From positions 74,115 through 138,114 of the forward strand of contig CALTUD010000004.1 in NCBI GenBank assembly GCA_943912335.1: a DNA stretch of 64,000 nt. The letters are read 5' to 3'. The position numbers were made by a program, and so were the translations under genes. The stretch's first letter is position 1. The number at the start of each line of letters is the position of its first letter. Under the pieces are notes generated by a model. That model did not search any database. It was not told the DNA's origin and saw nothing but the letters and a program-made list of their open reading frames with translations. Shown one piece after another: positions 41,790 to 63,524 of this stretch. The stretch is from an uncultured Acetobacteraceae bacterium. Lineage in GTDB: Bacteria; Pseudomonadota; Alphaproteobacteria; Acetobacterales; Acetobacteraceae.

Positions 41790-44700
41790 CGAATCTTCCC
41801 CATCTCGGAACACCTGCCGAACAGATTGCCCTAACGCGCCAGCCGATCAAGGGTTGTTTTCGGCATGAGACCGTTACGCAATACAGATGCGGACGGTTTA
41901 TCGTTACGGCTCATATGCGGGATTGCGAAGGGCGGGTGGATGATGCATCCGCCGTTCACTGTAATCGGCAAATCCGGCATGACCTTGGACCTCGAAACGT
42001 GATAGAGGGACTTTCAGCAGCGAGATTATTCTGGTTCACTGTCTGGCGCGACGTGAAAATATCCAGCCTCGCGTAATCTAGTCAAGACTGTAGATACTGC
42101 TTTAGCTCCAGGATCCGTTTTGTTCAGGTCCCGCTTTGCTTTGATATAAGCCACAATCTTCATCAGAATAAGTCTTTCGCTATTCGTGTTTACCTCTTGT
42201 CTATACTGCCTCATGCTAGTGTCTAGCATAAACCTCAGAAATAAAGAGCGCTTCTCAGTCTTGCTCAAAATCGCATGGGCAACATCGCCCCAGTTTTTGG
42301 GCTTAGATCTCAAAATCATGGCAAAATTGATGTACTGCTCAAAGCCTGACAATAATAGGTTCTGAGACATATATACAAAGACTTCGGCCAGTTTCTTTGA
42401 TCCCAGGACTTCAGTTGATTGATTTACTATTGAGGTAGGTATTACCGAAGCAACAAGTCCTGCTCGGTGCTGGGCATCAAATTCTATATCTGGATCATAC
42501 CTAATGCGATTTACGAAATTCATTTCGTTCCACGTAAATCTTTTCTGCTCGGCAATCAGAGGAGAAAATATAAAACCTATTCTCACGACAATCTTGGAAG
42601 CTTCTACGATTGCTTGGATAGCATTGACCTTCAGGCTACCTTCGACGTCGACAGCGTTGTTAATTGCGGTCATTAGTACTGATCTACTAAGTGTGACACT
42701 CTTTTCCCGTTCCTTGAAGTCCATTATAATAGTTGACTGTAATTCTGTCTTGCGTTCGGCTTCAATTGACCTCTTTAATTTGTCAATCTCGGGTATTGCA
42801 TCAGGACCTTGTTCGAGACTCTCAGTAATATCTTTCCAAATGGCTGCCTCGACCTCTTCAGAGTAAGTCCATTCTAACCTATCATACGGGTTTAAATCCC
42901 TAATATTATACTGATTATAAAATTCATCGATGGCGTCATTCAAACCTTTTGTCAGATTCTTCACAAGCTCTGTATTGTCTGCCGACAGACCACTAATAAC
43001 CTCGATAAGCCCTTCAACTTGCATGTGATCGTTATTTGCAAGGAATTCTTTCAAATCCTTCGGTCGATTTGCTACATATCTGCCTAGGAGATAGCTATAG
43101 AATAGCCTATAGCGAAATATATACACTGCATTGGACTTTTGAAGAACGCGACTGGCTGCTAAATCATTTAAGAGCGCAGACCAATCAAAGTTTATCAGAG
43201 TTCTAGACATGTATTTTGAGCAGAAAACTGCCCATTCAGTTTCGGTGAAGCTGACCATATCTTTTTTGTACAATGAATTTACAAATGAACTCAAAACATC
43301 AAGTTTGTTGTCTACGTTAAAGGAATCTCTGTAAGCATCGCCCGGCCTCCGTAACAGCTCTCTGATATATTTATCTATTATCTGAAGCCTACTAAGCGGA
43401 GCAAAGTCGCCTTCTCTATGAAGAATTGACAAGTACATTATTACATTTGTTGGAGTTAAAGGAATGCAAAGTTGCAGTAGGTCATTATATACCTTTTCTA
43501 CAACCCCCGATATATAGTCTTGATCGGCTGAGCCTGACATCTGGCGAGCTAATGTTCTAATGCCAGATCTATTTATGTTGCTGAGACGAAGAGAAATATA
43601 ATCTGCCTCATATGCATCGTCGTCATCTTGCACAGAAAAACTTTCAGTTTTAGTAAGTAATATAATTCTCTTAAACCGCTTTATCCCACGAATCTCTTTG
43701 AGAAGCCTCTCGTGATTAACACCGTCAAAGCCATCTAGTATGATGACTTCTTCTTTTATAGAGTCTGTAGAATTATAGCCAAGTTCCGATAGCAAGCGCT
43801 TTTGATAATTTGGAAGACTGTTTGCCTCCCTAAATATAGTTAAATGGCCAGATGTAGATAGTTGATTGGCTAAACGGCGACCTAATGTTGTCAATCCATA
43901 TTCGTGTGGAGCATGAATGACAAAGGACTTGTCGGAGACGACGATATCGTCGACGTTTAATGCATCAGGTTCTGATTCAAAGTCAGTTTCCAGCAGGGCA
44001 TTTGATGCAATTAGTCGAGGTTCGACGTAAAGAAGCTTATTCGCATAACCAACAAAAAGGTTTTGCGCCCACGGCTGTGGCTCAGAGTATATATCAACAC
44101 TCTCTTTTTCTATATCTTTGACAATACTCTCTACTGCACTATTCTCACCGTTAGATTTACGTGCTGGCATTTTTCGCAGCAGGTCTATCAGTTCGGAATG
44201 ATCTTGGAGGTTGCCGCTTTCATCCTTTTTGATACAGTAGAAGATTGGTCGGACTTTGTACTTACGCGAGAAACTGCGTCGCATTGTCAGTGATACCGGT
44301 TCCTCATCAGATCGGCCAATGAATGCAAAATGTCGATCATCGGAAGCTAGGTCACGTAAAGTCTCTTCCAGCCCTCTAGTAAGGAAAGGATCCTTGAAGC
44401 CGAAGCCAACTACAATAAGTCTTTGTGTACGAAAGAGGCCCTGTAGGAAGTTTACATTCTCTCTTACACCATAAAATCTGTTATAATCCTTTCCGGTAAA
44501 TATCATCTCCTCCGGAGCTGATGGAACCCCATGCCAATGCAGTATTGGTGGCGCCGAAACACTCAGGCTTTGCCCCTGAGTCCATCTGGATAGCTCGAAC
44601 CTCTCAGAACTACGGTGGGACTGGGGTAAGCTACTGAAGTAACGTACGTAAGCATTTGATAGGCCAGGATCATAGTTGAGAGTTATAAAACCTTGAAATG

Positions 44701-45250
44701 GAATTGCCATCAGTGATTCGTGCGCAACTGTACAGAGATCTGGCTTATTGAAGTAACTCGACAAAAGTGTACGAAACTTGTCAGTAAGTAGTGCCTCTTC
44801 CAGGCTGTCAGCAACATCCAACGGATCGTCTGCCATTTGTTGGAGTAGTGATGCAGCATCGTTCGAGTCTATGGCTCCGCTATCTTTTGCATGACTTATA
44901 ATGTTGTGAAGAATACCACCCCAAGTTGGTATCTGGGGAGCACTAGTGCCAGCGCCGGTAAATGCTAGAGCGTTATTAGACTGAATTGCCGCACATGCAT
45001 CTTGAAAGGCCGAACAATTGCCGGGGTATATATCCTCGCGCAACAGGCGCTTCAGGGCTTCATCCATGACGCTATCCCATACAGAAGTAGCTAAATAGGT
45101 TTGCTGAATGAGCAAGGGCGGCAACTCTCGCCTCCCGGCTCCACGTGATTTGTGACAATAGCATCATAACGATTCGCCATCTACGTGGCACGCGGGAAGC
45201 GAGCGATCGCCCTGCGTCAAAGCATATACAAAAGCGTCCCCCAACCCCTA
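41790..45250. other. Compositionally foreign AT-rich segment (about 35-40% G+C by eye against 65-70% flanks) inserted between the convergent 3' ends of ssuCB and ssuD; carries one large gene. No integrase, tRNA or flanking direct repeats seen.
   Basis: Abrupt GC drop is obvious in the raw sequence from ~42.0 to 45.12 kb, with transitional flanks. Codon usage of the enclosed ORF is AT-biased, unlike all neighbours. Confidence 0.75.
42026..45124 (-). CDS. Large (1032-aa) SIR2-like (sirtuin/NADase, SIR2_2-type) domain protein with extended C-terminal region; candidate single-gene anti-phage defence protein (DSR / SIR2-STAND-like)
   Basis: N-terminal SIR2 motifs: LAFTGAGTSAPQIPTWGGIL (GAG.S..P.W), FITLNYDPGL (TTNYD-type with catalytic Asn), ILHWHGV (HG with catalytic His), LIVVGFGFKDPFL. 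Downstream: FVIHAPHEYGLTTLGRRLA, IILDGFDGV, RIILLTKTE, then about 500 aa of helical sequence. TTG start at 45122-45124 with GGGAGG SD; the first ATG is at 45067. Confidence 0.8.
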   Translation of the reverse strand: MPPLLIQQTYLATSVWDSVMDEALKRLLREDIYPGNCSAFQDACAAIQSNNALAFTGAGTSAPQIPTWGGILHNIISHAKDSGAIDSNDAASLLQQMADDPLDVADSLEEALLTDKFRTLLSSYFNKPDLCTVAHESLMAIPFQGFITLNYDPGLSNAYVRYFSSLPQSHRSSERFELSRWTQGQSLSVSAPPILHWHGVPSAPEEMIFTGKDYNRFYGVRENVNFLQGLFRTQRLIVVGFGFKDPFLTRGLEETLRDLASDDRHFAFIGRSDEEPVSLTMRRSFSRKYKVRPIFYCIKKDESGNLQDHSELIDLLRKMPARKSNGENSAVESIVKDIEKESVDIYSEPQPWAQNLFVGYANKLLYVEPRLIASNALLETDFESEPDALNVDDIVVSDKSFVIHAPHEYGLTTLGRRLANQLSTSGHLTIFREANSLPNYQKRLLSELGYNSTDSIKEEVIILDGFDGVNHERLLKEIRGIKRFKRIILLTKTESFSVQDDDDAYEADYISLRLSNINRSGIRTLARQMSGSADQDYISGVVEKVYNDLLQLCIPLTPTNVIMYLSILHREGDFAPLSRLQIIDKYIRELLRRPGDAYRDSFNVDNKLDVLSSFVNSLYKKDMVSFTETEWAVFCSKYMSRTLINFDWSALLNDLAASRVLQKSNAVYIFRYRLFYSYLLGRYVANRPKDLKEFLANNDHMQVEGLIEVISGLSADNTELVKNLTKGLNDAIDEFYNQYNIRDLNPYDRLEWTYSEEVEAAIWKDITESLEQGPDAIPEIDKLKRSIEAERKTELQSTIIMDFKEREKSVTLSRSVLMTAINNAVDVEGSLKVNAIQAIVEASKIVVRIGFIFSPLIAEQKRFTWNEMNFVNRIRYDPDIEFDAQHRAGLVASVIPTSIVNQSTEVLGSKKLAEVFVYMSQNLLLSGFEQYINFAMILRSKPKNWGDVAHAILSKTEKRSLFLRFMLDTSMRQYRQEVNTNSERLILMKIVAYIKAKRDLNKTDPGAKAVSTVLTRLREAGYFHVAPDSEPE

Positions 45251-63447: not shown

Positions 63448-63524
63448 TGGTGGAGCTGAGGGGAATCGAACCCCTGACCTCCTCATTGCGAACGAGGCGC
63501 TCTCCCAACTGAGCTACAGCCCCG
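63448..63524 (-). tRNA. tRNA-Ala (anticodon CGC)
   Basis: Folded by hand: acceptor GGGGCUG with G3:U70, D-arm GCUCAGUUGGGAGAGC, anticodon loop UUCGCAA, T-arm AGGGGUUCGAUUCCCCU, encoded CCA. Confidence 0.85.

Follow-up and report, generated by a model that had tools for sequence, protein, structure and literature searches.

A SIR2-STAND protein from an uncultured Acetobacteraceae bacterium lies in a conserved sister clade of DS-8-type proteins that lacks the Walker A lysine

STAND/NLR receptors of animals, plants and bacteria are generally thought to require nucleotide binding in a P-loop for switching on. Here we describe a gene on a stretch of 64,000 nucleotides from an uncultured Acetobacteraceae bacterium (contig CALTUD010000004.1; the whole stretch is called the window hereafter), whose product joins a SIR2 domain to an NLR-type STAND module and a helical C-terminal domain, and in which the Walker A lysine of the P-loop is replaced by leucine. 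The lysine is absent throughout a large clade of relatives, apart from a few exceptions, and this clade is the sister of a lysine-bearing one that resembles DS-8, a single-protein defense system of Escherichia coli. By analogy with such systems, the most likely role of the gene is that of a single-gene sensor for abortive infection, with a STAND module that would oligomerize without hydrolysis of a nucleoside triphosphate (NTP).

The gene occupies an open reading frame (ORF) of 1032 amino acids that starts at a TTG codon. An ATG lies 19 codons downstream, at window position 45067, and gives a protein of 1013 amino acids; the database copy (P0001, 1013 amino acids, 100% identical) begins there, and residues 1-19 of the longer ORF are modeled as disordered, with a predicted local distance difference test (pLDDT) score below 50. 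The ATG at 45067 is thus probably the true start, in which case residue numbers, which follow the 1032-residue ORF throughout, are 19 too high for the real protein. The product has the plan of effector, NOD (nucleotide-binding oligomerization domain) and sensor, with SIR2 at residues 40-320, the NOD at 365-685 and the helical domain at 688-1020. Its features are as follows.

42026 to 45124, minus strand: whole ORF, 1032 amino acids from TTG (45124), by ORF list and translation
44165 to 45007, minus strand: SIR2-like NADase effector domain, residues 40-320 approximately, by Pfam SIR2_2 (PF13289), the PADLOC ThsA and LmuA SIR2 models and alignment with ThsA in the PDB
44012 to 44032, minus strand: conserved strand LYVEPRL, residues 365-371, about 40 residues before the P-loop, by alignment
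43580 to 43933, minus strand: core of the nucleotide-binding domain, residues 398-515, in the order beta1, P-loop, alpha1, beta2, alpha2, beta3, alpha3, beta4, beta5
43886 to 43912, minus strand: degenerate Walker A, A405-P-H-E-Y-G410-L411-T412-T413 (canonical GxxxxGK[ST]), by alignment
43730 to 43750, minus strand: Walker B-like strand E459-V-I-I-L-D464-G465, with the Asp kept and the second acidic residue absent
43649 to 43675, minus strand: beta4 strand FKRIILLTK, residues 484-492, at the sensor 1 position, a strand in the predicted models
43325 to 43570, minus strand: helical domain, residues 519-600, starting with R519 and R523, with helices at 519-530, 535-551, 558-571 and 579-591
43070 to 43315, minus strand: winged-helix domain, residues 604-685, arranged helix-helix-hairpin-helix, with a PF24406 match at residues 627-680 and the motif F670-[KR]671-Y672
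42065 to 43063, minus strand: C-terminal all-helical domain with one beta-hairpin, residues 688-1020, presumed sensor, AF2 pLDDT mostly 80-94

A preliminary description of this locus had proposed a triplet of STAND-type motifs (Walker A, Walker B and a downstream hhhT[ST]R) at window positions 43640-43924, and translation places that interval at residues 401-495, with each of the peptides it quoted where it had been reported. FVIHAPHEYGLTTLGRRLA, at residues 401-419 (window 43868-43924), spans the Walker A region, EEVIILDGFDGVN at residues 458-470 the Walker B-like region, and RIILLTKTE at residues 486-494 falls within window 43640-43675. A pattern check of the whole protein also bore out that GK[ST] occurs nowhere in it. 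Taken alone, [GA]xxxxGx[ST] says little, being found twice in the protein (the other copy, at residue 54, is the SIR2 Rossmann loop), and PDB sequence searches with the protein and with a family profile returned a weak ThsA match to the SIR2 domain plus noise, and nothing significant for the module; since these searches were uninformative, the fold was established from predicted structure. The AF2 model of residues 365-700, built on a 28-sequence family alignment (mean pLDDT 83.9), has strands beta1 at 400-405, beta3 at 459-464, beta4 at 484-492 and beta5 at 509-514, then a four-helix domain and a winged helix; within a P-loop alpha/beta core, the three flagged motifs map to beta1/P-loop/alpha1, to beta3 and to beta4. 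In the full-length model (pLDDT 79.1) the SIR2 domain (about 40-320) is followed by a disordered linker (324-349), then by the STAND module (365-685) and the helical C-terminus (688-1020). The top PDB match of this model in Foldseek is the AVAST5 filament, and the P-loop fold has NLRs as its top matches.

Conservation was assessed in two sets of homologs: 29 from a word-indexed search, and the 1245 matches (E<=1e-3) of an exhaustive representative search, 94 of them at E<=1e-30. From the latter come about 95 close relatives with the P-loop region, at 34-55% identity. In the Walker A motif APHEYGLTT the canonical first glycine is Ala405 and the canonical lysine is Leu411. The leucine itself is not conserved, position 411 in 95 close relatives being glycine in 33, leucine in 24, alanine in 22, serine in nine, threonine in three and arginine in one; what is conserved is the absence of lysine, found in none of the 95. 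The neighboring positions are strict, with G410 invariant, E408 in 92 of 95 and position 412 always threonine or serine. The Walker B-like strand, VIILD464-G465, departs from hhhhD[DE]: D464 is present in 99 of 100 close sequences, and the residue after it is asparagine in 63, aspartate in 17 and glycine in seven. The third proposed motif lies on the right strand, beta4, but the conserved basic residue of an hhhT[ST]R or sensor 1 motif is missing, since K492 shows little conservation in the lysine-less clade (R 27%, T 19%, K 18%; arginine or lysine in about 45%) and is unconserved in the lysine-bearing clade too.

Beyond the triplet, CIPLTPTNVIMYL at residues 553-565 contains C553-I-P-L-T-P-x-N560 (window 43445-43468), which the preliminary description had likened to the GxP motif; the CIPLTP segment is indeed at the STAND GxP position and is the most conserved motif of the family. 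Invariant columns of the 29-sequence alignment are R519, R523, I554, P555, L556, T557, P558 and N560, and R519 and R523 are near-invariant among the close relatives as well. Upstream of the P-loop, P369 is invariant in the 29-homolog alignment and Y366, E368 and L371 are conserved at 90% or more. In NLRs, the strand at the position of LYVEPRL touches adenine. A comparable adenine contact may be expected of LYVEPRL by analogy with I351 of EfAvs5 (PMC11897194).

When the window family was compared by hhalign with 19 lysine-bearing metallophosphatase-STAND proteins, the match (probability 100%, E 2.8e-56, 801 columns) ran unbroken from the strand that precedes the P-loop as far as residue 1015 at the C-terminus, with L411 opposite the Walker A lysine (K412 of P0137). 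Distant relatives at about 95-118 bits are likewise metallophosphatase-STAND proteins with textbook motifs, for example GKPEYGKTTLL and hhhIDD. Given the predicted fold, the conservation among homologs and the homology to canonical relatives, the flagged motifs are not due to chance: they are true elements (Walker A, Walker B and beta4) of an NLR-type STAND module.

The preliminary description had left room for coincidence, and one could suppose either a chance motif in a DSR1/DSR2-like helical scaffold of no P-loop ancestry or the decaying relic of an Avs-type pseudogene. The commonness of [GA]xxxxGx[ST], the lack of a significant match in the PDB profile search and the presence of DSR2 among the Foldseek matches would all suit that supposition. 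It is hardly credible, however, beside a confidently predicted P-loop fold with NLRs as top matches, full-length homology to relatives with canonical GK[ST], and an intact ORF of 1032 codons. The invariant motifs and intact SIR2 sites of some 95 relatives indicate purifying selection, not decay, and the DSR2 matches stem from the SIR2 domain (for example 8wyc_D, TM-score 0.70 over 273 residues). The predicted fold, the profile homology and the conservation of the pocket across the clade together refute both chance and decay.

The weight of the missing lysine can be judged from DS-8 (WP_032203427.1 of E. coli), which was validated as a single-protein defense system in the DefensePredictor study, where D52A, N84A and K375A each abolished protection (PMC13092281). 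K375 is the lysine of RIILIGDEFCGKSTILKK, within the first 399 residues of DS-8 given in the supplementary table; these residues are sufficient to place it in the Walker A motif (GDEFCGKST), and the family profile puts it in the column of L411. To see how the lysine is distributed, we built a neighbor-joining tree of 154 near-complete STAND-module regions, taken from the best 150 of the 1245 matches together with proteins from the word-indexed and DS-8-like searches (DS-8 itself is outside the tree), and rooted it at the midpoint. It falls into two clades.

Lysine-less clade: 109 leaves, with 2 exceptions; effectors SIR2, metallophosphatase, trypsin-like peptidase and DUF4062
Lysine-bearing clade: 45 leaves, with 2 exceptions; effectors almost all metallophosphatase, 2 leaves unclassified

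Parsimony needs just four state changes to explain the presence of the lysine on this distance tree, which suggests one ancient loss. The lysine-less clade has since become diverse, and its members among the matches examined form over 100 clusters at 50% identity. Relatives differ in the N-terminus that the module bears (SIR2, metallophosphatase, trypsin-like or DUF4062), a modularity common to STAND proteins of immunity; the lysine-less clade swapped effectors after losing the lysine.

A site-by-site comparison found three systematic differences between the clades and no others.

Position 405: G in the lysine-bearing clade; A, S or T in the lysine-less clade
Position 411: K or R in the lysine-bearing clade; L, G or A in the lysine-less clade
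Position 465: D (53%) or N (44%) in the lysine-bearing clade; N (49%) in the lysine-less clade

The strand [LI][YF]VEP is equally conserved in both, the winged-helix motif F-[KR]-Y is conserved in both, and these two motifs together with G410, T/S412, D464, R519, R523 and IPxTP are at least as well conserved in the lysine-less clade as in the other. The losses are thus selective, falling on residues with the closest ties to phosphate handling and hydrolysis, and erosion is not general. Walker A has lost its lysine and its first glycine, and Walker B usually its second acidic residue; NTP hydrolysis has therefore almost certainly been lost, so that the module may well be catalytically dead, as the preliminary description had put it. 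A separate feature of the lysine-less clade is a pair of basic residues, [RK]416-R417, on the helix after the P-loop (residues 415-417, window 43874-43882), at frequencies (R 42% and K 25%; R 66%) much above those of the lysine-bearing clade; it could form a compensating basic patch for the lost lysine.

Because the other pocket residues are all conserved, nucleotide binding without hydrolysis remains conceivable. The lysine-less pocket might still bind ATP, ADP or another nucleotide-like ligand, so that binding or exchange without hydrolysis is the switch, or it might sense a different small molecule; the contacts would come from the backbone amides of the P-loop, T412 with Mg2+, D464, the upstream YVEP strand and basic residues such as R519, R523 and K/R671. 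We regard this as a serious, though less likely, alternative. It agrees with the finding that, apart from G405, K411 and in part D465, the elements of the pocket are as conserved as in the lysine-bearing clade (in the lysine-less clade, G410 100%, T/S412 100%, D464 99%, P369 98% and R523 98%, besides F670-[KR]671), and with the greater conservation of [RK]416-R417. There is also precedent in EfAvs5, which requires ATP binding yet does not hydrolyze ATP, and in which an arginine of the winged helix touches the phosphate (PMC11897194), and in PaAvs5, of which the E410Q mutant stays functional. Against it, the Walker A lysine normally supplies most of the binding energy for the beta- and gamma-phosphates, and lysine-to-alanine mutants of DS-8 and Avs5 are null; position 411 is often glycine or alanine, which offer no substitute contact; R416 and R417 fall five and six residues past 411, not obviously on the same face of the helix; and the conservation of G410, T412 and D464 could be structural and not driven by a ligand.

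The conserved arginines bear on another proposal, namely that an inactive STAND module has turned into a nucleic-acid receptor for phage DNA or RNA. Kaur et al. suggested this for iSTAND, iSTAND2 and further eroded STAND modules, so that the hypothesis is a published one for inactive STAND modules (PMC8195603), and R519 and R523 would be suitable residues. However, the lysine-bearing DS-8-type clade conserves these two arginines and the remaining module just as well, so that they are no novelty of the inactive clade; the large dedicated C-terminal domain, common to DS-8, is a more obvious sensor; the MoxR and vWA partners of iSTAND systems are absent beside the window gene and at three homolog loci; and similarity to DnaA/ORC is that of a generic AAA+/STAND core. 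The idea is possible, but we think it quite unlikely and do not favor it.

The effector appears to be intact as an NADase. Its match to SIR2_2 (PF13289; E 3.5e-16, 60 bits) is well over the Pfam cut-off of 24.5. G57-A-G59, N150, D152 and H198 are invariant across the SIR2-bearing homologs, which argues for a competent enzyme; Foldseek matches the domain to ThsA and DSR2. In three metagenomic proteins of 676-757 amino acids (P0231, P0234 and P0252), SIR2 (PF13289) and metallophosphatase (PF00149) domains occur together. These may be dual-effector or effector-only proteins, given that SIR2 and metallophosphatase are two effectors alternating on the module of the nSTAND4 type.

The gene is horizontally acquired. 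Its GC content is 42%, against 67% for the remaining window, and it sits as a solitary gene in a low-GC (42%) insertion of about 3.4 kb (window 41800-45250) that interrupts a cluster of ABC-transporter, luciferase-like monooxygenase and NMT1 binding-protein genes. The insertion is flanked on one side by an ABC permease-ATPase pair and on the other by the luciferase-like monooxygenase and NMT1-type binding protein; the cluster looks like one of the sulfonate-utilization type. An integrase, a tRNA and flanking direct or inverted repeats bounding the insertion were looked for at the locus, and none was convincing. The sole tRNA of the window, tRNA-Ala(CGC) at 63448-63523 on the minus strand, is about 18 kb from the insertion and unrelated to it.

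Homologs are chiefly alphaproteobacterial (Neorhizobium, Microvirga, Hansschlegelia, Rhizobium, Sphingomonas, Asaia, Methylobacterium, Erythrobacter and others). We compared 12 species-representative loci (L004-L015), a set that leaves aside the window's own protein and whose proteins are only 34-48% identical. At all 12 the homologous gene is GC-poor (34-48%, against 56-71% in the flanks), with a deficit of 8-31 GC points. Repeated transfer or xenogeneic silencing may account for this lasting lack of amelioration. At three homolog loci inspected the neighboring genes differ and none is conserved: one lies just past prophage tail and lysis genes, one beside a resolvase, and one amid housekeeping genes. 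The low GC content at all loci and the unconserved neighbors point to a mobile, self-sufficient, single-gene defense module. The Salipiger mangrovisoli homolog (P0022; L002:1-7600) is directly downstream of a prophage tail-fiber gene (GpJ-like), an amidase gene and small genes of unknown function, and upstream of a HicB antitoxin gene; this locus may be prophage-borne defense cargo. When the protein was searched against a phage collection there were no matches, and a plasmid collection gave matches to the SIR2 domain plus one DUF4062-nSTAND4 relative. The latter, annotated as a 'DUF4062 domain-containing protein' on Chryseobacterium plasmid NZ_CP041688.1 (37587-39566), aligns with residues 365-1013 at 22% identity, from which it follows that the module and sensor also move on plasmids, with a DUF4062 effector.

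Taken together, we consider it probable that the protein is an NLR-like anti-phage sensor, in which a SIR2 NADase is joined to a non-hydrolyzing, oligomerizing STAND module of the nSTAND4/DS-8 type and a helical sensor, and which belongs to an old lysine-less clade, sister to the DS-8-type proteins. If it works as DS-8, Avs5 and other Avs proteins do, a phage-derived ligand would bind the C-terminal domain and lift autoinhibition; the STAND module would then serve as a non-hydrolyzing oligomerization scaffold, and the SIR2 domains gathered on it would deplete NAD+ and so bring about abortive infection. What the analysis shows is the architecture and fold, the homology, the conserved motifs, the clade-wide loss of the lysine, the intact SIR2 site, the exchange of effectors and the horizontal mobility. 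The defense role, the trigger, the oligomerization and the absence of hydrolysis are what we infer here from relatives and motifs. The general architecture (SIR2 effector, pseudo-NTPase and helical sensor, of Avs or STAND type) had been anticipated in the preliminary description, and both the predicted structure, with its P-loop alpha/beta core and helical and winged-helix domains, and the motifs of the homologs agree with it.

Several points weigh against this account. A defense function in the lysine-less clade is argued by analogy, the anti-phage validation being that of DS-8. The Walker A lysine is essential in the validated relatives that have been mutated (K375A in DS-8; K363A and K379A in Avs5), so that a protein lacking it would have to be compensated in some way to function. 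That G410, T/S412 and D464 are strictly conserved suggests that the pocket still binds something, and a pure scaffold may be too strong a description. The tree that separates the two clades is a simple neighbor-joining one with a midpoint root, from the best 150 of 1245 matches and the added proteins. Finally, the protein is under the cut-offs of the relevant family models, with 22.7 bits on PF24406 (E 1.1e-4, residues 627-680; gathering cut-off 27) and 40.6 bits on the NCBIfam DS-8 equivalog NF053861 (cut-off 790), aligned over residues 602-690 only, and a PADLOC scan matched SIR2 models and nothing outside the SIR2 domain.

In the bacterial relatives mutated so far (DS-8 and two Avs5 proteins) replacement of the Walker A lysine abolishes immunity, while the lysine-less clade dispenses with it; sister clades with and without the lysine, carrying homologous sensors, thus amount to a natural experiment on NLR-type activation, in which NTP binding might prove dispensable, compensated or replaced. 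More tentatively, an ancient and still-diversifying clade of NLR-like receptors might work free of nucleotide, or read another small molecule with its former ATP pocket. If so, the STAND switch can be fully separated from NTP, and the lysine-bearing DS-8 clade and its lysine-less sister would form a matched pair for gauging what the nucleotide contributes.

Among known systems, ThsA and DSR1/DSR2 share with the window protein an NADase domain of the SIR2_2 type with the same catalytic Asn and His. They differ in what follows it: the C-terminal part of ThsA is SLOG and that of DSR2 is HEAT-like and helical, with no P-loop module, whereas the window protein has a NACHT-like one. The NCBIfam Dsr1 model and the PADLOC DSR models do not match the protein, and a DSR1/DSR2-type architecture was rejected, a NACHT-like NOD following the SIR2 domain and the DSR2 structural matches stemming from that domain.

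Avs5 (AVAST type 5) is a SIR2-STAND system and so has the same kind of N-terminal NADase effector. It has a canonical GxxxxGK[ST], however, with ATP bound in the structure and defense abolished by K363A and K379A, and it carries an nSTAND3 module (PF20720) with a TPR, Sel1 or PPR sensor. In the window protein PF20720 has no match, and neither TPR nor any other repeat or Pfam family was detected in the C-terminal domain (Pfam, E up to 1); with no Walker A lysine and a C-terminal domain of the DS-8 type in addition, membership in Avs5 was rejected. Degenerate Walker motifs are known in one Avs protein, KpAvs8 (PMC13581612); Avs8 is PD-lambda-4, and PADLOC gives the window protein no match outside the SIR2 domain.

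Inactive modules as such have been described in conflict systems, where iSTAND, iSTAND2 and an inactive nSTAND2 keep the fold with their NTP-binding motifs eroded (PMC8195603). Both iSTAND and iSTAND2 serve as the third component in MoxR-vWA ternary systems, and the erosion in the window family is selective (G405, K411 and D465 only). No MoxR AAA+ or vWA partner genes stand beside the window gene or at three homolog loci, and membership in an iSTAND ternary system was therefore rejected.

The closest likeness is to DS-8. Both are tripartite, single-gene proteins of about 1000-1050 amino acids with homologous STAND and C-terminal domains; the NF053861 model (DS8_antiphage) aligns in the window protein to residues 602-690 and in homologs to positions 601-986, and the signatures [LI][YF]VEP, xE[YF]G.T, R519/R523, IP.TP and F[KR]Y are shared with the DS-8 type. 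DS-8 differs in having a metallophosphatase effector (D52, N84), which occurs only in relatives such as P0028 and P0029, where the window protein has SIR2_2, and in having Walker A GDEFCGKST in place of APHEYGLTT; on the tree, the window protein falls in the lysine-less sister clade of the lysine-bearing DS-8 type. The lysine-bearing relatives match NF053861 from model position 1 to about 690 at 140-205 bits (cut-off 790), and none of 214 relatives found in a profile search with 19 DS-8-like proteins reaches that cut-off.

The superfamily is already catalogued in other guises. Twelve of 29 homologs have PF24406, 'Novel STAND NTPase 4' (nSTAND_NTPase4), in their precomputed Pfam annotation, and all distant relatives tested score at or near its cut-off, several of them at 28-38 bits; the proteins matched by hhalign at 100% probability carry PF24406 too. 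The PADLOC candidate PDC-S60 matches metallophosphatase- and DUF4062-bearing relatives at 154-394 bits and does not match the window protein. The main text of the eLife 2021 study names nSTAND1 and nSTAND2, not nSTAND4 (PMC8195603), and in the literature on nSTAND4 and nSTAND we found no description of a lysine-less subclade or a SIR2 variant. The preliminary description's suspicion of an undescribed family therefore appears to hold for the branch and fails for the superfamily (PF24406, PDC-S60, DS-8), and STAND modules that have become inactive are known already. The models of PADLOC v2 and NCBIfam either recognize only the SIR2 domain of the SIR2 version or score it far under their cut-offs. 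What is new, as far as we have found, is the SIR2-effector branch of the DS-8/nSTAND4 superfamily, which extends the DS-8 family to an NAD+-depleting version common in Alphaproteobacteria, and the placement of this branch in a lysine-less clade, large and conserved, that is sister to a system whose lysine is experimentally essential.

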